Of a stretch of 64,000 nucleotides of DNA, positions 1-37,160 are shown piece by piece. The translations under genes were made by a program, and so were the position numbers. Location of the stretch: IMG/VR virus record IMGVR_UViG_2867359821_000001, positions 5,093-69,092 of that record. One strand, written 5' to 3'. Position 1 is the first letter of the stretch, and every line of letters begins with the position of its first letter. The stretch is from a virus. Under the pieces are notes generated by a model. That model was not told where the DNA came from. It saw only the letters and a program-made list of their open reading frames with translations, and made no database searches.

Positions 1-1558
1 CCCGCAGCGAGGCGTACATGGCGGCGTCCGCCCGGTCTGGGGAGCCGCCCATCATGGTCTTCATTTTGTCCTTGGGGTCGATCTTGATCGCCCCGCTCAC
101 CAGCTTGTAGGTGATGAGCATCAGTTCGTCCCGGAGGAGGTTGTCCGCAGAATCGATGTCGAGGAGGCCGTCGCGCATGAGGTCGGCGAAGTGGTCGTGG
201 ATCTCGTCGCGCCAGATGCGCCAGCGAGAGATGTCACTCGAGGATCTGGAGCCGATGACGCGGATGACTTCGTACTTCCGATCGGCGAACTCCGGAGACC
301 GCATGAGGTCAGTGGCTACGCCGGAGCCGACGGCGTTGCCGTCGATGCGGACTTCGGTGGCGCCGAGGTGCTTGGCGATCGCGTGGATCCGCCGCGCGTT
401 CGTCAGCGTGTCCTCCTTCGACCAGACGCCGGTGGTCTCACGGGTCTCGGCGCCATCCTGGTACAGGATCGTGTCGGCGAAGAGGCGGAGGTGGCCGCCG
501 CGGTTGACGTAGACGACGGACTCGTCATCACCGGTGGTCGCGATGTCGCAGCCGAGGATAACTGGCGTCTCGGGCTCGTACTCGATCTCCGTCTCGCGGG
601 CCTTCGTGATGTGGTCCTCGGCGAAGAACGTGTTGTCGGCGTCGCCGGGGAACTCGCCCATCACCTTGGCGAGGAAGCGGCCGTTGGGTGTGCCACCCTC
701 GCGCCGCATGTACTGGTCGTCGTCCGGGTGCTCCTCGTCAGGGATCAGGTCGCCGCCGACCTTCCACGCCCGCTCCTTGTGCGCGATCCAGAGCTTGCTC
801 GTGAGGCCGGAGAGCATTCCCGCTTGCTTCGCTGGGTCGTCGGGGTAGACGATCTCCCCGGTCATCGTCGGCAGCTCGTAGGCGGTGATCGTGTGCAGGT
901 TCCAGTCGGCGCCGGCGTCGGTGTTGAAGAGGTTGTAGAACGGGGTCGCGCGGTGGTCGGGGTTCCCGATACCAAGGATTCGAGAGTCGAGTCCTGTCAT
1001 CACGGCCTCGGCCGCGGTGAACAGATCCTCCGGGAGGCCGCCCATCTCATCGAGCCCGACCAGCGTGCGGTACTTTCGCGTTCCCTGGAACGCGGAGACG
1101 ATGTCGGTGTCGGCGGGGCGCTTGCCGATCGCGATCGCCTCCTTACCTGAACCGTCAGGCTTCTGGTAGTTCCATTCGAGTTGTTCGCTGATCCAGCCGA
1201 TCGGGCGCTGCCCACCGCTCTCTTTCGCCTGGGTTGCCATGTAGCCGTAGGCGTCTTTCAGGTACTTGAAGATGACGGACTTGATCTGGTCGCGGCCGTT
1301 CGCTGAGAACAGCGCGAGGGACTCCTCGGGCGGGAAGGCAGTGACCCACCAAACGCCGAGGTCCGAGACGGCGAAAGACTTCCCGCAACCGTTGGCGCTC
1401 TTGATCGCGTTGCGGATCTTGCCGTTGGTCGGCGTCGCACACTCGACCATGATCCCGGCCATCTTCTCGTAATAGCGGCGTCCGAGAACGTCGGACGCCC
1501 ATGCGAGATAGTCGTGCTGGTAGATGCGCTTCTTCGACTTCTGGACGAGTTCCTCCAT
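1..1558 (-). CDS. terL: terminase large subunit (3' end runs off left edge)
   Basis: Manual minus-strand translation from ATG at 1556-1558: MEELVQKSKKRIYQHDYLAW...VECATPTNGKIRNAIKSANGCGKS (Walker A)...SPDRADAAMYA (nuclease C-term). Absent from ORF track because no stop in window. Plus ORFs 111..512, 191..1150, 534..848 are antisense shadows. Confidence 0.85.
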   Translation of the reverse strand, partial: MEELVQKSKKRIYQHDYLAWASDVLGRRYYEKMAGIMVECATPTNGKIRNAIKSANGCGKSFAVSDLGVWWVTAFPPEESLALFSANGRDQIKSVIFKYLKDAYGYMATQAKESGGQRPIGWISEQLEWNYQKPDGSGKEAIAIGKRPADTDIVSAFQGTRKYRTLVGLDEMGGLPEDLFTAAEAVMTGLDSRILGIGNPDHRATPFYNLFNTDAGADWNLHTITAYELPTMTGEIVYPDDPAKQAGMLSGLTSKLWIAHKERAWKVGGDLIPDEEHPDDDQYMRREGGTPNGRFLAKVMGEFPGDADNTFFAEDHITKARETEIEYEPETPVILGCDIATTGDDESVVYVNRGGHLRLFADTILYQDGAETRETTGVWSKEDTLTNARRIHAIAKHLGATEVRIDGNAVGSGVATDLMRSPEFADRKYEVIRVIGSRSSSDISRWRIWRDEIHDHFADLMRDGLLDIDSADNLLRDELMLITYKLVSGAIKIDPKDKMKTMMGGSPDRADAAMYASLR

Positions 1559-1593
1559 CGCCAGGTCAAAGGAACGCGCGCTGATCGCAGAGG

Positions 1594-2247
1594 TCACGAT
1601 GCGTTCTCCAGATAGGTGATCGCTGCGCGCAGAGTGTCGATGTCGTCCCCGAAGGCGCCGAGGCCCATGTTGCACGAGGTGCAGAGCACGCCTCGAACGC
1701 ACTGTCCGCAGGCTGGTGAGACAGGGCAGCAGGCGTGGTCGTGGTCGATGGCGAAGTCCAAGCCTCCCGGCTCGTCACTCCCGCAGATGTCGCAGGTTAC
1801 ATCCGCCAGCAGCTCGACCAGGCGCTCATCGGAGATCCCGTACCGCATGGCGCGGCGGTGATGCTTAGCGCAGACGGTGCGGCCCCGTGCGCCGCGCTGA
1901 CAGCGCGGCATTGCGCACGGGACGGTCACCTCGATTGCTTGCGGTGAGAGACCCCGCTTGGTCTGGTAGTAGTGCGTCGCGCAGAGGTCTGTGCTGTAGT
2001 GCGCACGGTCACAGCCCTCGAACGAGCAAGTTGCGCCAGACGGGCGCCGCGCGCGAATGTCACGGGTCTCGCCGTACAGCCGGAGATGTCGCAGGTGGGA
2101 GTGGCAAAAGCCGCTCCCCTTGCAGAAGCGCCCGCACGAGACGTGTGAGCAGACCGCGTCAGCGATGACCTGGCTCAATCCTCCACCGCTTTCTGTTCGA
2201 TCACGGTCTGCGCGTGCCGCATCGCCTCGATGACGAGCTGGTCCCAC
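1594..2247 (-). CDS. Endonuclease VII / HNH-family nuclease with N-terminal Cys/His repeats
   Basis: C-terminal AIDHDHACCP...CGQCVRGVLCTSCNMGLG matches Endonuclease_7 DHDH...C..C..N motif. N-terminal repeats CSFEGCDRAHYSTDLCATHYYQ / CAMPRCQRGARGRTVCAKHHRR. Lies between terS and terL. Start uncertain (ATG 2247 overlaps terS by 72 nt; alternative TTG at 2178). Confidence 0.7.
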   Translation of the reverse strand: MGPARHRGDAARADRDRTESGGGLSQVIADAVCSHVSCGRFCKGSGFCHSHLRHLRLYGETRDIRARRPSGATCSFEGCDRAHYSTDLCATHYYQTKRGLSPQAIEVTVPCAMPRCQRGARGRTVCAKHHRRAMRYGISDERLVELLADVTCDICGSDEPGGLDFAIDHDHACCPVSPACGQCVRGVLCTSCNMGLGAFGDDIDTLRAAITYLENAS

Positions 2248-2672
2248 AGGTCTGGGTCGACTTCCGAGCGCAGCGCGCCCTTCATGTAGGAGAGGCTTTG
2301 GTCGACGACCTGCCCGAGGACGCGCGCGACGTTCAAGTCGTACGTCTCGAGGTCAATCTTCGTGGCCTCGCGGCGCTTGTCGAGGCGAGCGCCGATCTCC
2401 TTGAGGAAGCGCAGCTGCACGAGTGCGTTGTCCAGGTCGAGGTACTTCTCTTCGAGTTGGGCGAGGATGTTGCGCAGCCGGTAGAGGACCAGCTCGTCCT
2501 GTTCGGCAGCATCAACCCACCGCTTCGAGGTGAGAAGCACCGTCTTCTGGGCTGCGACTCGTTCGGGAGTGATGACGCCGCCGAGCCGGCGGGAGATCTC
2601 CTCGGCGGATTCGGAATCGCAGTACCGGAGGATCGTCTGGTCGATCTTGCTCAGCACGACATCAGTGGACAT
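2175..2672 (-). CDS. putative terminase small subunit
   Basis: 165 aa, position immediately upstream of HNH-terL, N-terminal HTH-like SAEEISRRLGGVITPERVAAQ. No diagnostic motif. Confidence 0.5.
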   Translation of the reverse strand: MSTDVVLSKIDQTILRYCDSESAEEISRRLGGVITPERVAAQKTVLLTSKRWVDAAEQDELVLYRLRNILAQLEEKYLDLDNALVQLRFLKEIGARLDKRREATKIDLETYDLNVARVLGQVVDQSLSYMKGALRSEVDPDLWDQLVIEAMRHAQTVIEQKAVED

Positions 2673-2673
2673 C

Positions 2674-2698
2674 CCCCAAGTCTAGGGCGAATTACGTG
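2674..2698 (-). promoter_or_regulatory. partial copy of the recurrent promoter-like motif (AATTCGCCCTAGACTTG) directly upstream of terS ATG
   Basis: Minus orientation cacgtAATTCGCCCTAGACTTGggggATG resembles consensus ...AAATTCGAGCCTAGCCTTGA. TAGACT hexamer 6 nt before the start codon. Confidence 0.35.
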
Positions 2699-2762
2699 CG
2701 TAAAGCGTGAACATCGTGTTATGCTCTACTCGTGTGATGGTGTGTCCCCGCCGGTGAACTGA

Positions 2763-2814
2763 AGGCCCCACCCCCATGATGCCGGATTGTTAACCCGGCG
2801 GAGGGGTGGGGCCT
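2763..2814. terminator. 12-bp perfect stem-loop (AGGCCCCACCCC / GGGGTGGGGCCT), putative intrinsic or bidirectional terminator
   Basis: Inverted repeat seen directly in sequence, about 28-nt loop. T-rich run (TTCTGTTTGTCTC) follows on plus strand. Sits between DGQHR gene stop and terS start. Confidence 0.5.
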
Positions 2815-2829
2815 TCTGTTTGTCTCGGA

Positions 2830-4263
2830 CTATTTCGTCTTGCCAGCCTTCGGCATTGAGGCCTCGAACTCGGCGTTCGCCGCCAGCAGTTGCTCCAACG
2901 CAGGATCGGCGAGGAGATCCGCATCGAGCGACTCTTGCTCGGCGGTCGGCGGCGCGGGGGGCGCATCCTTCGGTTCGGCCCACAGCCACGGTGCGCCCTT
3001 CTTGCCAAGGATCGCGGCGTCGACCAGCGTCTTGACGATCCCGCGGATGTCCTGGCCGCGCCCGTTCGGCGAGAAGGCGTTCACGCTGAATGCCTCGTTG
3101 GGCATGTTGTTGATCCAGATGGAGTTGAGGTGCGCGCCACCCAAGAGGTGAGGCTCGATCACCTTGAAGAAGTCCTTCACCTGCTCGCGGGTCCACTGGT
3201 GCTTCTCGCTCATCAGGTCGTGGTAGACGCCGGCGAGAACGCGCAGCATGGCGGGGGAGCCCAGGAGAGTGGTCGACCGCAGTGTCTCGACCGAGACTTG
3301 GCCGATCTTCATCGCCTCAAGCTGCGGGAACGTCTCGGACACGAGGTCGAGGAACGAGCGCGCATCCTCGGCGACCTTCTGATCACCGAGGATTCGCTCC
3401 TGCACCTTGCCGATTCGGCCTTCAAGCCCCACCTGCACGGCGCGGATGATGTCGGCGACGTGGCGTGCGGTGGCGTAGTCACTGCTGTTGCGCTTCAGGC
3501 GATCGTTTTCGAGGTCAACGCGCTTGTCGAGAAGGGGGTGCTCGAGCACGGTGGGCAGCGCACGGTTGACGACCTTGAAGCTGTCGAAGCGTGAGCGCAC
3601 GGAGGCGGTGATGCCGAGCGCATTGTCTGCGATGTCGAAGAACATCTGACGGTACTCACGGGTGTCGTCGGTCACCTGTAGTTCGACGGAGACGCGCTCT
3701 GAGCTGAAGCGATCCTCGAGTGATCGGGCGGCGCGCAGGGCGGCCTCGGCTTCGCGGACGGCCGACGAGGTCTTGTCTCCGTGCTCGGCGCGCATGGCCC
3801 GTGCTCGGAAGTCCTGCGCCTTCTCGATTTGCTGGGCGATCAGCTGTAGTGCGATATGGAAGCCGAGGATACGGTGTTGGCCGTCAAGGATCTGAATCTT
3901 TGAGGCGGAGCGCTTCGGGTAGGACATGACGCCCCACTGCGCGAAGCCGTCCGAGGGCTCCATCTCGGAATCGAACTTGAAGATGGAGGGTGCCCGCAGG
4001 ATGATGCCGGGAATGACCCAGCTCTCGCGCGAGAGGTAGTAGTCGGCGAAGGCCTTCGCGTGGTTCTCCCGGATGGCGCGGTTGCCAGGGTTCGGGACGC
4101 TCGGATCCGGGCGCGGAACCATGTTGACGATCTGTGCGGGGGACAGCGAAAGCCCGAAGACCGTGCGCCCACCCTGCTTATAGCGGGTCGCGTACGTCTG
4201 CTCTTCGGTCGCGATCCCAGCGACAACGCGGTCGCGTGTCGGTTCAGTAACGGTTTTGGCCAC
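2830..4263 (-). CDS. DGQHR-domain protein (DndB/DpdB-like, ParB/Srx superfamily)
   Basis: 477 aa. KIQILDGQHRILGF (DGQHR motif) and QMFFDIADNALG (F-x-D-x-N motif typical of DndB). Own upstream motif copy and downstream hairpin. Confidence 0.7.
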   Translation of the reverse strand: MAKTVTEPTRDRVVAGIATEEQTYATRYKQGGRTVFGLSLSPAQIVNMVPRPDPSVPNPGNRAIRENHAKAFADYYLSRESWVIPGIILRAPSIFKFDSEMEPSDGFAQWGVMSYPKRSASKIQILDGQHRILGFHIALQLIAQQIEKAQDFRARAMRAEHGDKTSSAVREAEAALRAARSLEDRFSSERVSVELQVTDDTREYRQMFFDIADNALGITASVRSRFDSFKVVNRALPTVLEHPLLDKRVDLENDRLKRNSSDYATARHVADIIRAVQVGLEGRIGKVQERILGDQKVAEDARSFLDLVSETFPQLEAMKIGQVSVETLRSTTLLGSPAMLRVLAGVYHDLMSEKHQWTREQVKDFFKVIEPHLLGGAHLNSIWINNMPNEAFSVNAFSPNGRGQDIRGIVKTLVDAAILGKKGAPWLWAEPKDAPPAPPTAEQESLDADLLADPALEQLLAANAEFEASMPKAGKTK

Positions 4264-4295
4264 GAGAGGTCCCCTTCAATAGTGACGTGAATATG

Positions 4296-4318
4296 TACTT
4301 TACGCTCTAATTTGGGGG
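4296..4318 (-). promoter_or_regulatory. weak copy of recurrent promoter-like motif upstream of DGQHR gene
   Basis: TACTTTACGCTCTAATTTGGGGG on plus strand. Shares CTCTAATTTGG / TTAATTTGG core with other copies. About 30 bp upstream of 4263 start. Confidence 0.35.
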
Positions 4319-4352
4319 CGGCGCAACAACGCGCGGGGGAGAGCTGACTTCA

Positions 4353-4631
4353 ATGTCGGAGGGCTCCGCCTATGCTTCTGAGCATTCGAAGAAATGTTCT
4401 AATGAGGACCGACGGAGGGGTTGGCCAGTGAAGACCGAGACAGTCAAATTCAAAGAGTTCGATGGAGGAAGGTCCGTGGAGATGCAGAGCGCCCCCGACT
4501 TCGTGTTCGTCGAAGCCGGGGGCCACTGCTACGCGTTCGATCGCGCACTGTTCCTACATGGAGTGTCGAAGCTCCTCGGGATCTCCGTCATCCTCGAACG
4601 CGACGTCGAAGGGGACTTTGCGCTCCCCTGA
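4353..4631 (+). CDS. hypothetical protein (doubtful)
   Basis: 92-aa ORF with GGGGAGAG RBS-like sequence 10 nt upstream and protein-like composition (K/F/E). But GC3 is atypically low and the 3' end overlaps dNMP kinase gene by 78 nt. Confidence 0.25.
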   Translation: MSEGSAYASEHSKKCSNEDRRRGWPVKTETVKFKEFDGGRSVEMQSAPDFVFVEAGGHCYAFDRALFLHGVSKLLGISVILERDVEGDFALP

Positions 4632-5225
4632 CCGGTGACCGGCGATGACGTCCGCCTTCGCCTCCAGCTCGGCCAGCGTGCCGTCATTCAGGAGGGTCGA
4701 GTGGAAGTCGTCCGCCGACACTGAGTTCTCGCTGGCGTGCGCCGCGGTTCCAGCTGTGGGGGCATGGACACCTGGACGCTCGATCCAGAGGGCCTGACCA
4801 CCGAGCTGCGCGATCATCCTGACTTCGTTGGGGAAGCGGATGCCGGTCACCACGACAGGGTGGCCGGCGGCGCGGTGATCGTCGATCTTCCGGGCCATGA
4901 TCTGCACCCAGACGTTCTCGCCGATCATGTTGCGGCCGACCTCCGTCCCGAGCTGCTGCAGCAAGCGCCGCACCTCGGGAATCTTCTTCGCCTCTACGTA
5001 CCCGACCTCCGCGATCAGCTCGGAGTATCTAGCGAATTCCACCTCGGTGTCGTAAACGTTCCCGTAAGCCTCGACGATCGGGTCGATCGCGAGCATGGCC
5101 TCGTGGAGTGCGTCCGACATCCCGAGCTTGACGTATCCGTGCTTGTCGACCAGGCGATCGGCGAATGCGTCCTTGCCGGAGCGGAGGCGACCGCCGAGAC
5201 CAATGAGGGGTTGCGAGAGGTTCAT
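4554..5225 (-). CDS. deoxynucleoside monophosphate (dNMP) kinase
   Basis: Start trimmed to MNLSQPLIGLGGRLRSGKDAFADRL (P-loop GxxxxGKD typical of phage dNMP kinases). ATG at 5223-5225 overlaps upstream stop (ATGA). Confidence 0.65.
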   Translation of the reverse strand: MNLSQPLIGLGGRLRSGKDAFADRLVDKHGYVKLGMSDALHEAMLAIDPIVEAYGNVYDTEVEFARYSELIAEVGYVEAKKIPEVRRLLQQLGTEVGRNMIGENVWVQIMARKIDDHRAAGHPVVVTGIRFPNEVRMIAQLGGQALWIERPGVHAPTAGTAAHASENSVSADDFHSTLLNDGTLAELEAKADVIAGHRSGERKVPFDVAFEDDGDPEELRHSM

Positions 5226-5785
5226 GCGGGCACCCCCAGCCCGTCGATGAGGAGGGGCATCTCCGCCCAGTCGTGGAGCCGTGCGCGATCGGTGACGTGC
5301 CTGTTGTAGGCATAGTCGCCGAAGACGATGTGCTTCCAGGTCGGCTCCATCGAGCCACTGATCTTGGGCTTGTCGTCGATGAGGAAGTCGCCGTGCACGA
5401 TCGTCTTGTCGTTGGTCAGCACGAGGCGGGAGGCCCAGTGCGAGCCGTAGTGGCGCATGATCCACGCGAGCTTGTCGCTCGCGCACGTCGGGTTCGAGAT
5501 GTACGGGCTCGAGACGATCCGCACGTCGTGGCCGGCCTTGACGGCAGCCTTCAGCGCCTCTCGGGCGCCGGGGATCGGCTCCAGCCGGCTATAGAAGCCC
5601 GGCTTGGTCATGATCTGTTCGATGAGCACCTTCTCGGCATCAGTGCGGCCGAAAGTGAGATCCCACTGCGCCTGGAAGGCGGTTCGCGGGATGTTTGCTG
5701 CGGCGTCGCCGGCCAGATCGAGGCAGCGGTCGAACTCGTCACCCCAGTGGGCGATGACCGCGTCCATGTCGACGAGAATGCGCAT
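5222..5785 (-). CDS. 5'(3')-deoxyribonucleotidase, HAD superfamily
   Basis: MRILVDMDAVIAHWGDEF (DxD HAD motif I); start trimmed to ATG 5783-5785 (ATGA overlap). Confidence 0.65.
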   Translation of the reverse strand: MRILVDMDAVIAHWGDEFDRCLDLAGDAAANIPRTAFQAQWDLTFGRTDAEKVLIEQIMTKPGFYSRLEPIPGAREALKAAVKAGHDVRIVSSPYISNPTCASDKLAWIMRHYGSHWASRLVLTNDKTIVHGDFLIDDKPKISGSMEPTWKHIVFGDYAYNRHVTDRARLHDWAEMPLLIDGLGVPA

Positions 5786-6381
5786 CAGAACTCCCGTCCG
5801 TAGTCGATGCCAGTGACGCGGAGCTTCTTGCCCAACAGCCACGACCGGGCCTCGGGAATTCCCGCGTAGCTCGCGACCTCTGGGCGCAGGTAGGCGAGCG
5901 TCAGGTGCGGCTTGTACTCGGCGAACGAATCGACGTGCGGCAGGATGCTGAGCGCCGCGTTCATCTCTGCCAGCTCGTCACCGCCGAGGCGTGCCACGAG
6001 GCAGCCGTAGGGGAGGTCGGCGTAGGGGGACTCGAAAACCTCGATATCGACAACCTCGACCGACACCTCACGCGGCCATCCGATCAGCTCGTTGATGACG
6101 TCCTTGCGCTGATGCGATGGCGTAAGCAGTCCGTACTTTGCGGTGACGTGAGCGCTGGCCTCGGCCACGGGGCCCTGGACCCAGTGTCGCCAGTCGCCGT
6201 CCGGCGCGTAGACATAGTCGCTCTCAATGATCCGTACACCCCAGGACTGCCTATCGAGCTGCTCGCGAACGTCGAGCGGATCGAACGTCAGTCCAACGAA
6301 TCCGAGCCGCTTCATCTCGACGCCGGCGGCGTCGAGAATGTCATCGCGTCCGATGAACTGGTTCTTGTCTGCGGCAGCCAT
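5785..6381 (-). CDS. 2H phosphoesterase (LigT / 2'-5' RNA ligase-like cyclic phosphodiesterase)
   Basis: Two H-x-T-x motifs (SAHVTAKYG and KPHLTLAYL) about 80 aa apart, 198 aa. Confidence 0.6.
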   Translation of the reverse strand: MAAADKNQFIGRDDILDAAGVEMKRLGFVGLTFDPLDVREQLDRQSWGVRIIESDYVYAPDGDWRHWVQGPVAEASAHVTAKYGLLTPSHQRKDVINELIGWPREVSVEVVDIEVFESPYADLPYGCLVARLGGDELAEMNAALSILPHVDSFAEYKPHLTLAYLRPEVASYAGIPEARSWLLGKKLRVTGIDYGREF

Positions 6382-6545
6382 CAGCTCGCCTTCCTGAGCG
6401 CGACCGGATCCACGATGCGGGTGTCGAGCCCAACCTGGATGATGGCCTGGCTCGCGGCCAGGCCATTCGGGGCGCCGAGGTACTTCACGAAGGTGGCGCG
6501 AGTGGGGCCGGCGAAGACGGTGTCTCCGGGCTTGAAGTCGTTCAT
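6381..6545 (-). CDS. hypothetical protein (54 aa)
   Basis: MNDFKPGDTVFAGPTRATFVKYLG...; start ATG 6543-6545 overlaps upstream stop. Confidence 0.45.
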   Translation of the reverse strand: MNDFKPGDTVFAGPTRATFVKYLGAPNGLAASQAIIQVGLDTRIVDPVALRKAS

Positions 6546-6766
6546 GAGTTTCTCCTTATCGAAGTTGAGGTGCTGTCGTCGGGGGCGCCGGTGATGGTTG
6601 CGGCCTCGACGGCCTCGAGCACGATCGTCCGGCCGTCGTCGAGGCGGTACGCGCGCCATTCGACGTTCGGGTCGCGGTCGATGAGCTTCCCGAGTGGGAA
6701 CCGCCAGCGCTCGTCCGGCTTGACGAGACCGACGTGGCTGCCGGGGTTGAGGGCGACGGTGGTCAT
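6542..6766 (-). CDS. hypothetical protein (74 aa)
   Basis: MTTVALNPGSHVGLVKPDERWRF...; coupled ATGA overlaps at both ends. Confidence 0.45.
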   Translation of the reverse strand: MTTVALNPGSHVGLVKPDERWRFPLGKLIDRDPNVEWRAYRLDDGRTIVLEAVEAATITGAPDDSTSTSIRRNS

Positions 6767-6993
6767 GCCGGCTCCATCACTCGCTCGACGGGCATGAATG
6801 CCGTCAGCTTCTCGACAGGGAACGTGCGGATCATCCCGGTGAGCCCGGAGGTGACGGTGGCGTACGCGACGTCGTCCGCGGCCTGCTGGAAGCTCAGGAT
6901 CTTCCAGGTCGTCTTCTGCGTGAGATCCGCGGCCGGGCCGACGAACACGGTGTCGCCGACCCGGTGTCCATGCGAGATGGCGATCGCGCTCAT
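6763..6993 (-). CDS. hypothetical protein (76 aa)
   Basis: MSAIAISHGHRVGDTVFVGP...; start trimmed to ATG 6991-6993 overlapping upstream stop. Confidence 0.45.
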   Translation of the reverse strand: MSAIAISHGHRVGDTVFVGPAADLTQKTTWKILSFQQAADDVAYATVTSGLTGMIRTFPVEKLTAFMPVERVMEPA

Positions 6994-7307
6994 TCGGTGC
7001 GCTCCCAGATCTTCGGCCATTCGAAGCGGTGCGAGCGCAGGCCCCGGTCGGTGCCGAGGATGCGCGCGATGCCCGGCCGGCGGATCTCGACCGACGCGAC
7101 CTTGTCGATGTCATGGCCGAGCGCCTCGATTAGCGCCTTAATCCGCTCGCCGGGCGTGGCCTCCTCGATGATCGCATCGGCGATCTCGACCGCGCCGGGC
7201 TCGATCGAGACGGGGGGCGCAGCCTCGCCGACGGGCACCGCGGGCTCGGTAAGCACCGCGAGCAGCGCTTCGTCGGCTTGCGGCTTGGTGTTCTTGGCGG
7301 ATGCCAT
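6990..7307 (-). CDS. hypothetical protein (105 aa)
   Basis: MASAKNTKPQADEALLAVL...; start ATG 7305-7307 overlaps nrdH-like stop. Confidence 0.45.
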   Translation of the reverse strand: MASAKNTKPQADEALLAVLTEPAVPVGEAAPPVSIEPGAVEIADAIIEEATPGERIKALIEALGHDIDKVASVEIRRPGIARILGTDRGLRSHRFEWPKIWERTE

Positions 7308-7576
7308 CAGTTCTCCTCGTTGTTGAGCGCGGCCTGCTCGGCCGCGAGTTCGCGTTGGATGGTGGGGAATTCGGCGATCGTGCGGAGCTTGCCCTTCCAG
7401 CCGAAGACTGGCGCCCGCTCCATGCCGGCGTCCTTCAAGCGCTGCGCAGCCGCCTCGTCCTCCTCGACGTTCACCACGGTGTACGGAAGGGCGGCGGCGT
7501 CGAGGCGCTTCATCACCGTGTTGCAGGTGGCGCAGATCGTGGTCTTGTAGATCTTGAGCTTGTTCGCCACAGTCAC
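7307..7576 (-). CDS. nrdH: NrdH-like glutaredoxin
   Basis: KIYKTTICATCNTVMKRLDAAALPYTVVNV: CxxC redox motif in thioredoxin-fold context, 89 aa, GTG start. Confidence 0.55.
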   Translation of the reverse strand: MTVANKLKIYKTTICATCNTVMKRLDAAALPYTVVNVEEDEAAAQRLKDAGMERAPVFGWKGKLRTIAEFPTIQRELAAEQAALNNEEN

Positions 7577-7857
7577 AGCTCCAGGCCAGACGGTCGCGTG
7601 GGCAGCTCCAGGGTCTGCGCGGTAGAGCCGAAGCGTGCCTCAAGCTCCAGCACCTTCGCGCTCACTTCCCGCAGAACCTTCACGAGATCCGCGAGGCGGA
7701 ACATCCCGAGCACGCGCTCCTCGCCGTCCTCGGGGTCGATGTACTGCAGCTGCACCTCGACGATGTCCCTGTTGCCGGGGCGGGGCTCGGCAAAGAGCAC
7801 GCGCCTGTCCTCGGGGAGGAAATCGTCTTGGCCGGTGGCCTCGAGCTTGATGGTCAT
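7573..7857 (-). CDS. hypothetical protein (94 aa)
   Basis: ORF-track ORF, coupled to neighbours. Confidence 0.45.
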   Translation of the reverse strand: MTIKLEATGQDDFLPEDRRVLFAEPRPGNRDIVEVQLQYIDPEDGEERVLGMFRLADLVKVLREVSAKVLELEARFGSTAQTLELPTRPSGLEL

Positions 7858-8123
7858 TTGTGGTCTCGCTTTCTGCGCCAGAGGGGGCGCCGTGTGGCTT
7901 GGATCGCGGCGTGCTGCGCCGCAGGGAGTGGGGGAGTGAGCGCGGCGGCGATGTCTCGGCCGTCGAACTCGCCGAGCGTCACCCAGCGATCGTCCTCGCC
8001 GTCGAAGTCATCGGTGTAGGTGTGGCTGATGCGGACGGTGCTCGTGTGAGCGCTGAACGCGATGGCTAGGGAGTTGCGGCCATCGCGCGACTCGAGCGTC
8101 AGTGTCTGTTCGAGCGCGGTCAT
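7854..8123 (-). CDS. hypothetical protein (89 aa)
   Basis: ORF-track ORF, coupled to neighbours. Confidence 0.45.
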   Translation of the reverse strand: MTALEQTLTLESRDGRNSLAIAFSAHTSTVRISHTYTDDFDGEDDRWVTLGEFDGRDIAAALTPPLPAAQHAAIQATRRPLWRRKRDHK

Positions 8124-9902: not shown

Positions 9903-10102
9903 GCTCGGTACCCCCGCGAGTCAGTCTCGCCCGGAGCGGTCGCTCGAATGGTGATCCAGCTGCCCCAGAGAGGGCCCTGGCTGGCTACGTACGCCTCGGC
10001 GTCATCCACGGACGCGAACGGGCCGATGTAGCGCGGCAGCTGGTCGCTGTGGCCGGAGTCCCGACCCAGCTCGGCCTCGATGAAGAACGGCTTGTCGGTC
10101 AT
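9899..10102 (-). CDS. hypothetical protein (67 aa)
   Basis: MTDKPFFIEAELGRDSGHSDQLPRYIGPF...; trimmed from longer ORF 9899..10558. Confidence 0.4.
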   Translation of the reverse strand: MTDKPFFIEAELGRDSGHSDQLPRYIGPFASVDDAEAYVASQGPLWGSWITIRATAPGETDSRGYRA

Positions 10103-10948: not shown

Positions 10949-11670
10949 TTCTTGCCCTCCGACTTCTTCTTGGCGGGCTTCTTCGGGACTGGCTCCGGGG
11001 TCGTCCCCTTGATGTCGTCGATGCGGATGCGACCATCGTCGAAGATGCTCGCGAAGACGGCGGCGCCTCCGGCCGCCGGGTCGAAGCCGATGCGCGGGTA
11101 GTAGAACGAGAGCTGCTGCGCCGGGGCGAGCCCGGCGACCTTCTTCTCGGTGGCCTCTCGCTCGTCGGCTGCCTTCTTCTCTGCGCGGACCTCGAGCGCG
11201 GTCTGGATGTCGGCCCAGAAGCGGTCGGTGTCGTGACCCAGCGTGACCTGTTCGATGTCGCCGCGCTTCGTGACCTTGGGGTAGCCGTGACGCTCGTACC
11301 CCTTGATCTCGAGGGCGTTGAGCAGGGCGGCGATCGTGTTGCGGCGGGCCAGATCTGCGGCGGTGCGCAGTTCTGCAGCCCAGCGCTCGGCGTCCGTGCT
11401 CGAAGCGTCCTTCGGGGCGGTCCAGTACGTCGTGAGCAGGGGGCCATGCGTGCCAACAGATGCGGGACCGGGGCTGGAGGTGAAGCCGGCCTTCCGAAGA
11501 GTGGTCTCCGCACGCTGCTTATCCCACTCGAGCTGTTCGATGCGGTCGCGCTGCTGCTCGACGCGGACTTCGTGGGATGAGACGCGCGATTCCGCGGCTT
11601 CGCGGTCGCTCTCCGAGCGCTCCAGCGCCTCGCGGAGCTGGCGGCGCGTCCTGGGGGTGGGGGTCGCCAT
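10945..11670 (-). CDS. hypothetical protein, coiled-coil N-term, Lys-rich C-term
   Basis: 241 aa, heptad-like N-terminus, PKKPAKKKSEGKK tail. Confidence 0.45.
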   Translation of the reverse strand: MATPTPRTRRQLREALERSESDREAAESRVSSHEVRVEQQRDRIEQLEWDKQRAETTLRKAGFTSSPGPASVGTHGPLLTTYWTAPKDASSTDAERWAAELRTAADLARRNTIAALLNALEIKGYERHGYPKVTKRGDIEQVTLGHDTDRFWADIQTALEVRAEKKAADEREATEKKVAGLAPAQQLSFYYPRIGFDPAAGGAAVFASIFDDGRIRIDDIKGTTPEPVPKKPAKKKSEGKK

Positions 11671-12257
11671 CAGAACTTCCTTCCGTGCTTGTGGGCACGC
11701 GTGGCGTTGTACGCGAGCTTCTCGAAGATGATCGAGGCTAGGTCGAAGCCCGCCTCGTGGGCGAAGTCGAAGGAGCGGATCACGATGTCGGCGATCTCGG
11801 AGGGGACGCCCTCCGGCTTGCCGATCGCGTCGTCCAGGACGTCGGGCTTCTCGCCGGCTGCCCAGGCGTAGGTGTCGCCGTTGACCTTCGCGGAGTACCA
11901 GGTCTCGTCGGAGCGGCGGCCGTTGCGGAGCTCCTCGATCGCTTCGGCAGCCTCGGTGACGATGAGGGCGAGGCGGGCGGTCTGGTAGTTGCGGAGGATC
12001 GCCTCCCAGTTCTCCTCTGGATCAGGCTTGCCATCCGGGCCCTCGGACAGACCGCCCGCGCGGTTGATGGAGCGGACGGCGTCGAGCTGGTCGCGGATCT
12101 TCAGACCCTCCTCGTGGAAGCCCTTGGCGGCGTTCGCTTCGCCGATGCGCTTCTGGATGTCGCGGAGTACGTTCTGCACGAGGTCCGGCGGGAAGTGAAA
12201 CTCGCGCTTGTGGACGATGCCGGCGGGGTCATAGCCCACCCCAGTGAAGCCGCTCAC
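11670..12257 (-). CDS. mazG: MazG-like nucleoside triphosphate pyrophosphohydrolase
   Basis: LIVTEAAEAIEELRNG (E-x-x-E-x-x-x-E metal-binding helix), SEIADIVIRSFDFAHEAG, C-terminal KLAYNATRAHKHG resembling MazG K-N-x-x-R-Y tail. Confidence 0.5.
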   Translation of the reverse strand: MSGFTGVGYDPAGIVHKREFHFPPDLVQNVLRDIQKRIGEANAAKGFHEEGLKIRDQLDAVRSINRAGGLSEGPDGKPDPEENWEAILRNYQTARLALIVTEAAEAIEELRNGRRSDETWYSAKVNGDTYAWAAGEKPDVLDDAIGKPEGVPSEIADIVIRSFDFAHEAGFDLASIIFEKLAYNATRAHKHGRKF

Positions 12258-12547
12258 GCGGGGGCCTCCGTCGGGATCTCGACCTTGCTGAGGACGGGGA
12301 GGGCGCCGAGGTGAAGGAGCACCGTCCGCTCGACGTACTCGCCGATGGTCTTGGCGTACTGGGCGGGGTCGGCACCGTGCGGGTGGTCGAGCTTCGACCC
12401 GTAGGTGACGTCCTTCTCGCCTTCGGTCTCGAAGTCGAGTCGGATGCTCGTCGACCTCTTGGGCGGTTCGACCGGTGCCGGCGGCGTCTCGGGCGTGATC
12501 TCCGTGCCGTCGGCGAGATCGGGCTGGGTGAGCGTGGGGTCAGTCAT
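12254..12547 (-). CDS. hypothetical protein (97 aa), first gene of the long minus-strand operon
   Basis: MTDPTLTQPDLADG...; start trimmed to ATG 12545-12547 preceded by AAGGGAGCACC RBS 8 nt upstream. Confidence 0.45.
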   Translation of the reverse strand: MTDPTLTQPDLADGTEITPETPPAPVEPPKRSTSIRLDFETEGEKDVTYGSKLDHPHGADPAQYAKTIGEYVERTVLLHLGALPVLSKVEIPTEAPA

Positions 12548-15615: not shown

Positions 15616-15739
15616 GACGCAAATCTTGAGGTATCACACGCACGCACGTCGCGAGGTTGAGCGGACAGCCGCGAGCCACCTGGAGAGAGTTATCCACAGC
15701 CCTTTTCACACCGCCTTTCCCGCAAGTTTGCACACACCT

Positions 15740-16180
15740 CCCTAGACCCCTCTACATATCTACTCTTCAACAGTATGAATGTAGTAGTAGAGGTTTGTGT
15801 GTGTAGAGCGTTGAACCCCTCTCCCTTGAAACCATTGGGATCGCGAGGCTCTCAGGAACCTCCCAGCCTTACACATACCCGTTTTTTACACATTCACGCC
15901 TCAACATTCAACACGTAGTGCCGACACAGCCTATCTGCAAATTGTTGAGGCTAACAGTCCAAATGTAGAAATGGCGTGAAGCTCATGTGTAAGAAAACGT
16001 GAATGTGTACTTCGGCGCGAATATGTAGCAGCATCTGGCGCGACATCGCCAGCCGACTTATCCACAGCCCTTCGTTACCCAACCGTGACCGAAAACAAGC
16101 GGCTAACTGTTGAACATCTAGTTCAACATCGCTACTGTTGAACTACTGGGCAACGAAGCCACCCCCACACGAAACGGAGA
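15740..16180. promoter_or_regulatory. AT-rich (about 45% GC) non-coding region with iteron-like repeats; candidate operator cluster and/or replication origin
   Basis: No ORF >=60 aa. Repeated TGTTGAAC (15810, 16108, 16136) with inverted GTTCAAC (16121). ATGTAG x3, TACACAT x2, CAACATTCAACAC. Confidence 0.45.
16110..16138 (+). promoter_or_regulatory. sigma-70-like promoter TTGAAC-N17-TACTGT overlapping palindrome GTTGAACatctaGTTCAAC
   Basis: -35/-10 spacing 17 nt; 7-bp perfect inverted arms at 16109-16127; about 45 nt upstream of gene at 16187. Confidence 0.45.
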
Positions 16181-16186
16181 ATGACC

Positions 16187-26108: not shown

Positions 26109-26153
26109 GTAAACACTATGTACCGTGAAATAAGACTTAAAAGGAGATTAAAC

Positions 26154-27434
26154 ATGAGCGAAACCACCGCACAGTATCCCGTCAAGCTGAGGGGCACAGG
26201 GGCCCCCGTCCTGATGTGGGCCCACGAGCACGAAGTAGAAGCATCCGCGCTGCAGCAGCTCCGCGACGTCAGCGAGCTGCCGGGCCTCCACGGCCTGCGC
26301 GTGATGCCCGACGTGCACTGGGGCAACGGCGCCACCGTTGGCTCCGTCATCGCGATGGAGCAGGCCCTGGCGCCGGCTGCCGTAGGCGTCGACATCGGCT
26401 GCGGCGTCAATGCCGTCCGTACCAACCTCACGCTCGAGGACCTCGGCGATCGCGACCTCCACGCCTTGCGACTGCGTTGGGAGAAGGTCGTGCCCGTCGG
26501 TTTCAGCAGCTACGAGCGCGCCGGCGATCAGCTGAAGGTACTCAACCCCCAAGAGAAGCAGCGCACTGCGCGGTTCCTCGACTCGGTGGACACCCTCCGC
26601 GCTGACCTCACGGAGCGGAGGAACAGCGACGCAGCAGTGCGCGGCCGGGCGGCCCACCAGCTGGGCTCCCTCGGCGGCGGCAACCACTTCATCGAGCTGT
26701 GCTCGGACTCGATTGGCCGACTCTGGATCACGCTGCACTCGGGAAGCCGGAACATCGGCAAGAGCCTCGCGGAGCGGCACATCCAGATCGCCAAGGGCCT
26801 GAAGGAGAACGAGGAGCTGCCGAAGCACCTGCAGCCGCTGAGCCTGTTCTACAAGGGCACGAAGGAAATGGATGACTACCTCCACGACCTGCGCTGGGCT
26901 CAGGAGTTCGCGATGCTCTCGCGTACCGTGATGATGGAGGCGGTCAAGCACGAGCTGCAGGACTACTTCGAGAACTCGGGCCTCTCGGCGCCGCGCCGGT
27001 ACGTCAACTTCGACGAGGAGATCAACTGCCACCACAACTATGTGGCGGAAGAGATGATCGACGGCAAGATGATGATCGTCACCCGGAAGGGCGCGATCAG
27101 CGCGAAGAAGGGCGAGCGGGCGCTGATCCCCGGCTCCATGGCCACAGGCTCATACGTGGTGCGCGGCCTCGGCAACGAGGCCTCCTTCCAGTCCGCGTCA
27201 CACGGCGCCGGCCGCAAGATGAGCCGAGGCGCTGCGAAGGAAGCCTTCCGGGGCGTGGATGACGGAGCGGCTCAGATCGCACGTCAGCTGGGCAGCGTGG
27301 AGTCCCGCCGTGATAGCGGCATCCTCGACGAGCTGCCCGAAGCGTACAAGCCGATCGAGCAGGTGATCGCGGCAGAGAAGGATCTGGTCGAGGTCGAACA
27401 CAAGCTCGAGACGATTCTCTGCGTGAAGGGCTGA
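26154..27434 (+). CDS. rtcB: RtcB RNA 3'-phosphate/5'-OH ligase
   Basis: GNHFIEL, LIPGSMATGSYVVRGLG, SFQSASHGAGR signature. AAGGAG RBS in an AT-rich 40-nt leader. Confidence 0.85.
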   Translation: MSETTAQYPVKLRGTGAPVLMWAHEHEVEASALQQLRDVSELPGLHGLRVMPDVHWGNGATVGSVIAMEQALAPAAVGVDIGCGVNAVRTNLTLEDLGDRDLHALRLRWEKVVPVGFSSYERAGDQLKVLNPQEKQRTARFLDSVDTLRADLTERRNSDAAVRGRAAHQLGSLGGGNHFIELCSDSIGRLWITLHSGSRNIGKSLAERHIQIAKGLKENEELPKHLQPLSLFYKGTKEMDDYLHDLRWAQEFAMLSRTVMMEAVKHELQDYFENSGLSAPRRYVNFDEEINCHHNYVAEEMIDGKMMIVTRKGAISAKKGERALIPGSMATGSYVVRGLGNEASFQSASHGAGRKMSRGAAKEAFRGVDDGAAQIARQLGSVESRRDSGILDELPEAYKPIEQVIAAEKDLVEVEHKLETILCVKG

Positions 27435-28748: not shown

Positions 28749-28999
28749 GCGGCAAGACGTACTTCGAGCGGAACAACGAGGGCATCGGGCGTGCGATTGC
28801 TCGCAACGAGTGTGCTGAGCCCGGCCCTTGGGGAACTGTGTGCACGGAGGACATCTGGCACCGCTACTCGCACTATGACAGCGGTGATGACTCATCGTGG
28901 CAGGACGACTGGCGCGACTACGGCCCGGATGACGAGGACGATCCCGACACCCGTCCCGCCACCCCACCCGAGAACCGAGAGGAACAGAGCAATGGCTGA
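28745..28999 (+). CDS. hypothetical acidic protein (84 aa)
   Basis: ORF-track ORF. Confidence 0.4.
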   Translation: MSGKTYFERNNEGIGRAIARNECAEPGPWGTVCTEDIWHRYSHYDSGDDSSWQDDWRDYGPDDEDDPDTRPATPPENREEQSNG

Positions 29000-35118: not shown

Positions 35119-35823
35119 ATGAACGAATCCCTCGACGACCTGCTGGCAGGCGGCGGAAAGACTGCGAAGTTCGAAACCGTCGGCACGCGCTGGAGCGGCG
35201 TGGTCACCAAGGCGGAGCCCCGCCAGGCGACGAACTTCGACACCGGCAAGCCCGACTTCTGGGACGATGGCCAGCCCAAAATGCAGGCGGTCGTCTCGAT
35301 CCAGACGGACGAGCGCATCGACGAGACCGACGACGGCGTCCGCGCCATCTACATCAAGATGTGGGGCGACCAGAAGAAGGCGTTCCGTCTCGCTGCGCAG
35401 GCGGCCGGCGGATCCCCGAAGCCCGGTGACACGTTCACCGCGACCTACATCGCCGACGGCGAGAAGCCGCAGCGTGGCTTCGCTCCGAAGATCTTCAAGT
35501 ACGAGATCCAGAAGGCCAGCGCGCTGGACGCGATCGTCAACGGCACCGCACCCGCGGTGCAGCAGCCGGTCGCTCAGCAGCCGGTCGCTCAGCAGCCGGT
35601 CGCTCAGCAGGTGCAGCAGCCGGTCGCTCAGGCGGCCCCGGTGCAGCAAGCCGTGAACGTGCCGCAGGCAGGGCTCACCGCCCAGCAGGAGGCTCAGGTG
35701 AAGCTGCTGATCGGGAAGTCCCTCGAGGACGACGCGATCGCCGCGGTCATCGACGGCGCGACGCCCCAGGCCATCCAGGCGGTGCGCCTGCAGCTCGCAG
35801 CCGCGAGCAGCAACGGCTTCTGA
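35119..35823 (+). CDS. hypothetical protein (234 aa) with Gln/Pro/Val/Ala tandem repeats; possible ssDNA-binding/recombination partner of upstream exonuclease
   Basis: QQPVAQQPVAQQPVAQQVQQPVAQ repeat; function by position only. Confidence 0.4.
   Translation: MNESLDDLLAGGGKTAKFETVGTRWSGVVTKAEPRQATNFDTGKPDFWDDGQPKMQAVVSIQTDERIDETDDGVRAIYIKMWGDQKKAFRLAAQAAGGSPKPGDTFTATYIADGEKPQRGFAPKIFKYEIQKASALDAIVNGTAPAVQQPVAQQPVAQQPVAQQVQQPVAQAAPVQQAVNVPQAGLTAQQEAQVKLLIGKSLEDDAIAAVIDGATPQAIQAVRLQLAAASSNGF
35560..35628 (+). repeat. 15-nt tandem repeat (CAGCAGCCGGTCGCT) x3 + 1 spaced copy
   Basis: seen directly inside CDS 35119..35823. Confidence 0.85.
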
Positions 35824-36016: not shown

Positions 36017-36961
36017 ATGTTCCTGTTCATCCTCGCGATCATCCTCGCGATCATCGCAGTCGTCGGCGTGTTCGTCGCCACATCCTCAAAGGATCTGCGC
36101 TTCGGCGCGATCATCACCACCGCAATCACAGCGCTGGGCGCCATCATCGCTATCTTCTTCGCCACCTTCTACGCCAACGGCGTCGGTGAGGCGAAGGTCA
36201 AGGTCAGCTCCGTCGACCGGCAGGTCGTCGGGACTGTTGAAGAGCCTGGATCCGGCTTCAGAGCGCCGTGGGAAGACTTCGTCGAGTTCGACCTGTTCTC
36301 TCAGGAGCTGCTGTTCGCCGGCAGTGACGGCGGCGCCCCGAGCTACACCGGCGGCACGGTCAACGGCCGCGAGATCACCGTCTCTGTCGGCGGCGTCTCG
36401 GGCGGCTCCACGCAAGCCCAAGTCGACATGACCTTCGTCTACTCCGTGAACGCCGACGCCATCAAAGAGATCTACTCGGAGTACCGGTCGCAGGAGCGGT
36501 TCACTGAGCAGATCGTGACCCGCCAGGTGCTCTCGATCTCTCGGCAGGTGCCCTCCGAGTACAGCGCCATCGAGTTCCGCGGCTCCAAGCGAGGCGAGGC
36601 CGAGACGCGCATCCTCGACGCGCTCAACGAGAAGCTGGGCAAGTACGGGGTCGAATTCTCTGCGGTGACCATTCAGGACGTGCGATTCTCTGAGGACGTC
36701 GAGAAGTCGCTCACGTCCATCGAGCAGGCCAACCAGAAGGCGCAGGAGGCCGAGGCCAACCAGCGCACGAAGGAAGTCGAGAATGAGACGCTGATCGCAT
36801 CCGCTCAGGCTGAGGCGGACGCCAACAAGATCCTGTCGCAGTCGCTGTCGGCACCCGTGCTGCAGCAGCGCTACCTCGACACACTGGCGAAGCTCGCCAA
36901 GGAGGGCAACCTCGTGGTCGTCCCCGAGGGCTTCAACGGCCTGGTGAACGTCGGCAAGTAG
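36017..36961 (+). CDS. SPFH/band-7 (stomatin/prohibitin-like) membrane protein
   Basis: N-terminal TM segments then VDRQVVGTVEEPGSGFRAPWEDFVEFDLFSQELLF... and coiled-coil C-half, 314 aa. Confidence 0.6.
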   Translation: MFLFILAIILAIIAVVGVFVATSSKDLRFGAIITTAITALGAIIAIFFATFYANGVGEAKVKVSSVDRQVVGTVEEPGSGFRAPWEDFVEFDLFSQELLFAGSDGGAPSYTGGTVNGREITVSVGGVSGGSTQAQVDMTFVYSVNADAIKEIYSEYRSQERFTEQIVTRQVLSISRQVPSEYSAIEFRGSKRGEAETRILDALNEKLGKYGVEFSAVTIQDVRFSEDVEKSLTSIEQANQKAQEAEANQRTKEVENETLIASAQAEADANKILSQSLSAPVLQQRYLDTLAKLAKEGNLVVVPEGFNGLVNVGK

Positions 36962-37160
36962 CCCAAGACCACAACTGAATACTCCGGTGAATGCACGCGT
37001 GGGGACGCGCGAGGGGAACCGGCGGCCTGGCCCTCCGAGGAACGGGCTTCACGGGCAGGAGTGCAGTAGGGCACAGCGCAGCGCGCATGCGTTACACGGG
37101 TTCGATCCCCGACCTGCCACGCAGATCAAGATCTTAAATTCGACCGAAAGGAGCAGCGTC

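Follow-up and report, generated by a model that had tools for sequence, protein, structure and literature searches.

A DndB-like protein with a small divergent partner precedes the packaging genes of a Microbacterium prophage

The DndB-like gene and its protein

We analysed a 64,000-nucleotide stretch of viral DNA (positions 5,093 to 69,092 of IMG/VR record IMGVR_UViG_2867359821_000001; hereafter the window, to which coordinates refer unless a locus such as L128 is named) and concentrated on one gene in it, which encodes a 477-amino-acid protein related to DndB and adjoins the genes for DNA packaging. The original prediction described a stand-alone gene that had been inserted at this place and was a candidate for a role in DNA modification. 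What emerged is a DndB-family protein, probably of ParB-type fold, in a phage setting that had not been described before, with a dedicated small partner and with relatives that are fused to sigma-70; in the literature searched we found no paper on the phage subfamily, its small partner or the DndB-like–sigma-70 fusions as such. The protein has an exact counterpart on a 3.68-Mb contig of Microbacterium sp. GCA_003626735.1, and the window belongs to a prophage of ~69 kb, with a serine integrase, in a Microbacterium chromosome. The gene, its motifs and the elements that flank it are as follows.

2830–4263, minus strand: DndB-like (DGQHR-domain) gene, 477 amino acids, the longest open reading frame in 2763–4352
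3871–3885, minus strand: DGQHR codons (GAC GGC CAA CAC CGT), residues D127–R131
3622–3642, minus strand: codons of FFDIADN, the second family motif, residues F208–N214
4264–4427, no strand assigned: divergent intergenic promoter/operator region, 164 bp, between the DndB-like gene and the small partner gene
4428–4631, plus strand: small partner gene, 67 amino acids, divergent from the DndB-like gene, its 3' end overlapping the end of the gene for deoxynucleoside monophosphate (dNMP) kinase
2757–2820, minus strand: GC-rich nested hairpin, 10 nt past the stop codon of the DndB-like gene, with arms at 2757–2774 and 2803–2820 and a 13-bp perfect core

Both motifs were read directly from the sequence. 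DGQHR, the presence of which had been claimed, lies at residues 127–131 in the context ILDGQHRILG; the second motif, given earlier as F-x-D-x-N, departs slightly from that spacing and is actually FFDIADN, or QMFFDIADN (residues 206–214) in its fuller form. Across 45 homologues Q129, H130 and R131 were invariant and D127 and G128 at least 90% conserved, and in the second motif (QxFFDIAxN in the family) Q206, F208, D210, I211, A212 and N214 were invariant. DGQHR is the presumed nucleotide-phosphate-binding motif of the ParB/Srx-type fold.

Membership of the DGQHR/DndB family was borne out by two profiles, each above its cut-off: Pfam PF14072 (DndB; E = 2.1e-25, 89.9 bits against a cut-off of 29.1) and the NCBIfam DGQHR domain TIGR03187 (66.8 bits against 58.85). 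The DndB model of PADLOC matched weakly (30.5 bits, residues 174–365 only), and no meaningful NCBIfam model other than the generic DGQHR domain matched, even at E ≤ 10. Because this generic domain is the sole NCBIfam match, the protein is, as judged from its sequence, a generic member of the DGQHR family and not an orthologue of DndB or DpdB; it belongs to a distinct branch, found mostly in actinobacteria, of the DGQHR/DndB-like (ParB/Srx-fold) family. We found at least 594 homologues. PHROGs holds no family for the protein, a tblastn search with it against 50,697 GenBank phage records gave no match, and megablast of window positions 1–8000 against the same records returned nothing.

An AlphaFold2 model built with 45 homologues was confident (predicted local distance difference test score, pLDDT, 89.9). 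In it, an N-terminal beta/alpha domain extends to a strand–helix junction at DGQHR, directly after which a long antiparallel coiled-coil hairpin is inserted (helices 129–159 and 167–188); the chain then re-enters the core with the FFDIADN helix and continues into a C-terminal domain made up of helices alone and then an acidic helical tail. The model is compatible with the ParB/Srx-type N-terminal fold that had been proposed, an assignment that draws mainly on the sequence family. A Foldseek search against the PDB gave nothing significant; the best meaningful structural neighbours are SspE, BrxU and PadC, all with ParB/DUF262-type domains; the BFVD search gave just weak DndB or GmrS-like matches (template-modelling score <0.4), and a sequence-profile search of solved structures returned spurious matches to the troponin coiled coil only.

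We set the protein against the systems that it resembles. DndB is the only functionally studied member of the family; it is a DGQHR protein and a DNA-binding repressor of the dnd promoter, that of its own operon (PMC4507180), and has been described as a ParB-like domain joined to a HEPN domain (PMC3632139). The window protein shares with it the Pfam family, DGQHR and a second motif, and a helical C-terminal domain that follows a putative ParB-type N-terminal one. It is plausibly likewise a regulator that depends on nucleotide, binds DNA and has a site in its own promoter, and the conserved promoter element and the motif shared with another region of the prophage point indirectly to such self-regulation. 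Unlike DndB, it is ~100 amino acids longer with a long coiled-coil insertion, is encoded by a phage beside a small divergent partner, belongs to a narrow family and has no dndA or dndCDE nearby. We rejected DndB proper because NCBIfam gave no DndB-specific match, the PADLOC DndB model matched only in part, and dndA, dndC, dndD and dndE were neither present in the ~69-kb prophage nor recurrent beside homologues. DpdB, the ATPase partner of DpdA (PMC10164549), is a DGQHR-type ParB-fold protein and probable NTPase, as the window protein may also be, but neither the prophage nor the surroundings of the homologues hold a DpdA/TGT, DpdC or preQ0 pathway gene; with no TGT or Que family in the prophage and no DpdB-specific NCBIfam match, this identity was rejected too. 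The earlier observation that no Dnd, Dpd or Ssp partner is visible extends to the whole prophage: its precomputed Pfam annotation, covering ~69 kb, contains no Dnd, PAPS-reductase, DndD/E, Dpd, TGT, Que or Ssp family and no radical-SAM, Tet/JBP, methyltransferase or glycosyltransferase family.

Three further identities failed. For a partition ParB, PF14072 is the sole Pfam match, with no PF02195, helix-turn-helix or ParB C-terminal domain; partition was rejected because the prophage is integrated and lacks ParA, and its only parS-like feature is a cluster of repeated TACAYAT motifs. GmrSD/DUF262 type IV restriction was dismissed because Pfam gave neither PF03235 nor a nuclease domain, the likeness being structural only; the phage protein differs from SspE, BrxU and GmrSD, with their DUF262/GmrS-type N-terminal domains, in lacking an HNH/DUF1524 nuclease as well as the PF03235 match. 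A HEPN-type Abi protein was rejected because, although R341 of a potential Rx6H motif is invariant, H348 (+7) is Y or F in many homologues, so that the catalytic H is not conserved; there is no HEPN match in Pfam.

Partner gene, synteny and wider family

The small gene upstream most probably starts at GTG 4428, which is preceded by the ribosome-binding site GAAGGGGA (GGAGGGG); an ATG further upstream, at 4353, is a less likely alternative. Its 67-amino-acid product has a core of four strands and a helix ('EFDGGRSVE...GHCYAFDRALF'), for which AlphaFold2 gave a weak model (pLDDT 65, from an alignment of seven sequences). No Pfam or PHROG family covers it, and its six close database homologues are all 67–68 amino acids long. 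Conservation at the protein level was evident in loci L004–L006, and an iterated hidden Markov model search placed the partner immediately upstream of the DndB-like gene, in divergent orientation, in 33 of 37 assessable loci, L038 included. It is absent beside family members on plasmids, in islands and in sigma-fused form. Because the 67-amino-acid gene is conserved beside the DndB-like gene, the label 'stand-alone' is inaccurate for the phage form. The two genes are genetically associated, and their products may interact.

The wider gene order is also conserved. The genes for the 5'-deoxynucleotidase NT5C and dNMP kinase, the small antisense gene, the DndB-like gene, terS (small terminase subunit), terL (large terminase subunit), portal and capsid recur in this order in a 60.8-kb Logan contig, Agromyces larvae and Microbacterium sp. 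No. 7, as well as in 35 IMG/VR loci and several GTDB Microbacteriaceae genomes, and terS is the next gene after the DndB-like gene in about 30 of 38 phage loci. In locus L038 the DndB-like gene instead lies near genes for ThyX and DNA polymerase A and not near terS. Identities to relatives were 43–53% for the DndB-like protein, 37–52% for TerS, 48–68% for dNMP kinase and 38–73% for NT5C. Kept synteny and a divergence similar to that of its neighbours argue for long co-inheritance, and the gene is a long-standing component of the phage lineage and not a moron or the recent insertion that had been proposed.

Beyond these phages, a family profile recovered 843 representatives at E ≤ 1e-3, of which 460 reached E ≤ 1e-10 and 198 reached E ≤ 1e-30. 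As just 843 of the 1.84 billion representatives searched passed the most lenient threshold, the family is narrow; it ranges over Actinomycetota (Microbacteriaceae, Micromonosporaceae, Acidimicrobiia, Solirubrobacterales and Nanopelagicales), with some members in Chloroflexota. Those outside phages are usually encoded by solo genes: the copy on a Streptomyces MOBF plasmid stands beside an integrase and near ParA, and that on Hoyosella pAS9A-2 among HsdR, Pycsar and toxin–antitoxin genes. Solo homologues on chromosomes and plasmids had no recurrent neighbour (on chromosomes, at most 2 of 67 flanking open reading frames per Pfam family), and no dnd, dpd, TGT or methylase gene stood beside them.

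A third form was found among the longest proteins of the family. Of the nine longest members, drawn from the 150 best family representatives, eight carry a complete sigma-70 (regions 1.2, 2, 3 and 4) fused to the whole DndB-like domain; they include RefSeq WP_419705846.1 (Promicromonospora) and WP_051681729.1 (Cellulomonas), which are annotated merely as sigma factors. Fusions matched the family profile at E values of 1e-57 to 1e-81. Residues 22–430 of the window protein align to one of them with 29% identity (E = 5e-41), and the window protein is 33% identical (E = 1e-60) to a solo paralogue encoded right after that fusion. The domain is thus common to both end to end, including the coiled-coil insertion and the C-terminal helical domain. 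Unlike the fusions, the phage protein has no sigma-70 and ends in a short acidic helical tail; as it stops at residue 477 without any sigma region, we classed it as a solo relative. The fusions also differ in lying in chromosomal defence islands and in lacking the 67-amino-acid partner. Their genes encode 743–900 amino acids (L128 10001–13818; L129 10001–12703; L130 7603–10305). In L128, from Promicromonospora, the fusion is followed by a solo DndB-like gene, with Dcm/Vsr, DUF499/DUF1156 and SIR2 in the flanks; in the metagenomic contigs L129 and L130 it stands between two GmrSD_N genes and PglW/PglX/PglY, with AbiE beside. Because sigma-70 is the only recurrent fusion partner in the family, these proteins point to a role in transcription.

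The defence-island settings of L128, L129 and L130 also admit a second reading, doubtful but worth weighing, in which the phage gene is a conflict module, with or without its small partner: either a prophage defence gene (superinfection exclusion or abortive infection) or an anti-defence factor, perhaps a decoy or dominant-negative copy of host DndB-like–sigma-70 regulators that activate defence islands. It gains from the Hoyosella copy beside HsdR, Pycsar and toxin–antitoxin genes, from the L128 arrangement in which a fusion is followed by a solo paralogue similar to the phage protein, from the moron-like possession of a promoter and terminator of its own, and from the richness in defence systems of the wider superfamily (GmrSD, SspE, BrxU; PMC3632139). 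The fixed syntenic position and co-divergence with neighbours are, however, unlike variable defence cargo; the protein has no nuclease or effector domain, its HEPN-like Rx6H is not conserved, the PADLOC match is weak, and non-phage members lack the small partner. 'Regulator decoy' and 'anti-restriction' had been offered before as alternatives, and either may hold.

A cofactor role in DNA modification, in which the protein would target or activate a modifying enzyme supplied by the host or by an unrecognised phage gene, is improbable. DpdB (PMC10164549) and the ParB protein associated with 5mYOX (PMC13229309) provide precedents, genes for dNMP kinase, a 5'-nucleotidase and a glutaredoxin-like protein adjoin, and many small open reading frames of the prophage have no annotation. 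Set against this are the absence of any TGT, Que, PAPS-reductase, radical-SAM, Tet/JBP, methyltransferase or glycosyltransferase family from the prophage, the restriction of the NCBIfam match to the generic domain, and the lack of a recurring family among the 67 neighbours of solo chromosomal homologues or of such partners beside plasmid copies. Together with the sigma-70 fusions, these results leave the modification reading of the original prediction unsupported. RefSeq labels the family 'DNA sulfur modification protein DndB'; the evidence indicates no link to phosphorothioation and, for the phage protein, no part in a 7-deazaguanine modification pathway, and a corrected label is important for the interpretation of prophages, plasmids and defence islands in actinobacteria. 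The family occurs in three natural forms (in phages with the small partner, solo on plasmids and in islands, and fused to sigma-70) and would offer a tractable ParB-fold nucleotide switch outside chromosome segregation.

Candidate regulatory DNA and possible function

The divergent region between the two genes contains GTACATATTCACGTCACTA at 4280–4298 (minus strand), and the motif copy noted earlier upstream of the gene is probably AAGTACATATTCACGT at 4286–4301 (minus strand). A scan for sigma-70 consensus promoters found none. In L004, L009, L011, L012 and L014 the element GTACAYATT is equidistant from the start codon (at about -43 to -35), while the sequence around it is not conserved among those loci; the promoter-element pattern with GTACAYATT occurs a single time in the window.

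At the other end of the gene, the perfect hairpin that had been predicted is real. Its folding energy as RNA is -51.5 kcal/mol (z = -6.6), and none of 200 shuffles folded as stably. It has no U-tract, and for lack of this T-run the terminator scan recognised it only partly; it is likely to be an intrinsic terminator (I-shaped, without U-tract) or a 3'-end stabiliser between the gene and terS. A hairpin lies at the matching place in L004–L006 and, among 32 distinct phage loci, comes after the stop codon in about 26, with z < -1.5 in 20 of the 32. With a promoter region on one side and a terminator-like hairpin on the other, the gene has the appearance of a separate unit, shielded from the packaging operon, in agreement with the original prediction.

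This insulation bears on the idea that the protein is a packaging accessory, which would recognise or prepare the cos/pac region for TerS, the HNH protein and TerL. ParB-type proteins are common beside terminase genes in phages, and in about 30 of 38 phage loci the gene has terS as its immediate downstream neighbour. The hairpin stands between the two genes, however, and close members co-occur with very different TerL types (only 26–29% identical to that of the window), whereas phages with related TerL (41–44% identity) lack the DndB-like gene, so that the gene is not bound to one terminase type. Since members also turn up without a terminase, whether in different phage modules, on plasmids, within chromosomal islands or fused to sigma-70, we consider a packaging role very unlikely.

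The promoter motif has a second home in the window, within a 570-bp intergenic region (15616–16186).

15753–16027, both orientations: six TACAYAT repeats, holding AAGTACACATTCACGT

AAGTACACATTCACGT equals the promoter motif of the DndB-like gene at 15 of 16 positions, and the 16-nt promoter motif AAGTACAYATTCACGT recurs with one mismatch at 15997–16012 (minus strand). Six TACAYAT within 270 bp compare with a maximum of two in 200 shuffles, and the 9-mer TACAYATTC occurs four times in the window where 0.10 are expected; an exact k-mer search for motifs repeated close to the gene yielded the TACAYAT family only. The cluster is a candidate shared operator, iteron or parS-like region. Sharing of the motif implies that some DNA-binding factor links promoter and repeat region, and we infer that the DndB-like protein may be this factor.

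The same intergenic region also holds inverted repeats ACTGTTGAAC/TGTTGAACTA and, 368 bp apart, two copies of an 18-nt direct repeat, GAxTTATCCACAGCCCTT. The region may serve as an origin, as an array of operators or as a site akin to a centromere.

An organiser of phage DNA, which would load in the manner of ParB on TACAYAT iterons of an origin-like or centromere-like region and condense or position the DNA, could also explain a motif shared between an iteron-rich 570-bp region and the gene's promoter. ParB proteins often autoregulate through parS-like sites, distant relatives stand among replication and recombination genes (YqaJ, PolA, ThyX), and the Streptomyces plasmid copy is near ParA. 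Integration of the prophage by a serine recombinase without a ParA, the absence of PF02195, helix-turn-helix and ParB C-terminal matches, and the sigma-70 fusions, which do not fit, make such an organiser very improbable.

The reading that we tentatively prefer, at somewhat less than even chances, is a DNA-binding transcription regulator switched by nucleoside triphosphate, which acts at the early–late boundary together with the small partner. According to a survey of the ParB-CTPase fold, mobile elements carry it widely; the survey also reported that a DndB-like protein binds ATP and GTP and that a ParB-fold–Sigma70 fusion binds ATP (PMC12704722). By analogy of fold and with these relatives, the N-terminal domain would bind a nucleoside triphosphate through DGQHR and FFDIADN, and the coiled-coil insertion might serve dimerisation or contact with a partner. 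The protein would then act on DNA, RNA polymerase or sigma as a nucleotide-switched regulator of phage transcription, presumably in cooperation with the 67-amino-acid protein encoded divergently from the common promoter region. Its likely targets would be its own promoter and the TACAYAT cluster at 15.75–16.03 kb, which share the motif, with autoregulation or operator binding at the TACAYATTCACG sites.

As the last unit before terS, the gene may control the transition from early genes to late genes for packaging and structure, an argument from position. In temperate siphophages that infect Gram-positive bacteria, genes for late activators of the RinA/ArpU/LtrC type immediately precede terS, so that the DndB-like gene shares with them both the place before the packaging operon and the proposed regulatory role; there is no relationship in sequence or fold, and the resemblance is positional only. 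Also comparable are the phage ParB that activates a thymidine dioxygenase (PMC13229309) and ParB-CTPase clamps such as KorB and BisD, ParB-fold proteins of mobile elements that act on DNA as activators or long-range regulators. These carry PF02195 with ParB-like dimerisation domains, whereas the phage protein is of the DndB branch and has no cognate enzyme nearby. If the phage form does control late transcription it would fill a gap, as the late-gene switch of temperate actinobacteriophages is poorly defined.

Several observations weigh against a late-gene regulator. The most distant phage relatives carry the gene in modules for replication or nucleotide metabolism and not before terS. Another phage regulator, or a replication origin, could just as well account for the TACAYAT sites. 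The fusions sit in defence islands and not in phages, and may reflect regulation of defence over that of phage late genes. Finally, a search for an element common to the DndB-like promoter and the stretch immediately before terS was positive in L006 and L009 alone, neither in the window nor generally, and mean scores within loci barely differed from those between loci (9.95 against 9.67). Where present, this 14-nt element agrees at 12 of 14 positions (TTTAGCCGAyTAA in L006, at 11497–11536 and 9960–9985; TTAGTCCACTAAT in L009, at about 7500–7520 and 5975–5990) and hints at co-regulation in some lineages. Because it is confined to these two loci, it lends the late-gene idea no support in the window.

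A bolder version of the regulator is that actinobacteria couple a sensor or regulatory domain to sigma-70 for the control of defence islands (Pgl/BREX type 2, DUF499/DUF1156 and SIR2 neighbourhoods), that the phage protein is this domain on its own, and that it docks on or poisons the sigma machinery. We hold this to be unlikely, and set it out for what it would mean. In one form, the protein and its 67-amino-acid partner would dock on host sigma or RNA polymerase and redirect transcription to the late genes, as a new class of sigma-associated phage activator switched by nucleoside triphosphate. In the other, it would poison host DndB-like–sigma regulators and so block the induction of defence; disruption of such regulators would be a new anti-defence principle. 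Either would reveal a previously unrecognised ParB-fold-to-sigma signalling axis in phage–host conflict.

The surrounding prophage

The genes that border the DndB-like gene comprise the end of the upstream operon on one side and the packaging genes, as originally described, on the other.

5222–5842, minus strand: NT5C 5'-deoxynucleotidase, with dNMP kinase the last genes of the upstream operon
4554–5225, minus strand: dNMP kinase, near the end of the upstream operon
2175–2672, minus strand: candidate terS, 165 amino acids, the first gene past the hairpin, named by its position directly upstream of terL
1594–2247, minus strand: HNH/Endonuclease VII gene between terS and terL (Pfam Endonuclease_7, 1.1e-17; phrog_2914, phrog_5351)
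1–1597, minus strand: 5' part of terL, which runs off the window (566 amino acids in full; phrog_2, 1.1e-30)

Candidate TerS matched no family in Pfam or PHROGs; the gene is kept at the same place in about 30 loci, with 37–52% identity. The HNH gene is absent from L004–L006 and hence probably a mobile homing endonuclease. A second Endonuclease VII/HNH gene lies at 60160–60912 (plus strand), antisense within the block of tail genes, and both look like free-standing homing endonucleases and not core packaging genes.

On the minus strand the prophage runs from the recombinase through the head–tail connector and tail genes, tape measure and tail fibre genes; early genes on the opposite strand follow (helicase, RtcB, WhiB, Band_7 and Prim-Pol), then many small genes with the glutaredoxin-like, NT5C and dNMP kinase genes, and finally the DndB-like gene, terS, HNH, terL, portal and capsid. 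At its right end a large serine recombinase (62552 to beyond 64000, minus strand) adjoins host FecCD and SIP genes, and the left end lies ~5 kb past window position 1, right after portal, protease, capsid and two small genes. The recombinase (62552–64000 in the window, minus strand) is directly upstream of the head–tail connector and tail genes, and the other prophage end (L001 14263–19400; L042 3351–4793) comes right after the capsid and two small genes. The attachment site therefore falls within the structural gene cluster, and the integrated state separates head from tail genes. L004–L006 are likewise truncated after the capsid block.

Two further genes, for an RtcB RNA ligase (26118–27434, plus strand; E = 3e-108) and a 2'-5' RNA ligase/LigT-like protein (5785–6381, minus strand; phrog_755), suggest a capacity for RNA repair, for example against tRNA-cleaving defences. 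A Band_7/SPFH gene (36017–36961, plus strand) lies directly upstream of the Prim-Pol/DUF3987 primase gene (36987–39680, plus strand), and in the distant phage locus L040 a Band_7 gene (11628–12545) is found near the DndB-like gene. Four tandem copies of a 15-bp unit, CAGCAGCCGGTCGCT, lie at 35560–35630, within the coding sequence 35119–35823, and encode a short peptide repeat. Three exact copies of CCGAGAACCGAGAG lie at 28968, 29206 and 29995, spanning ~1 kb in which open reading frames are short and the coding signal is weak; this region may be another regulatory or repeat element.

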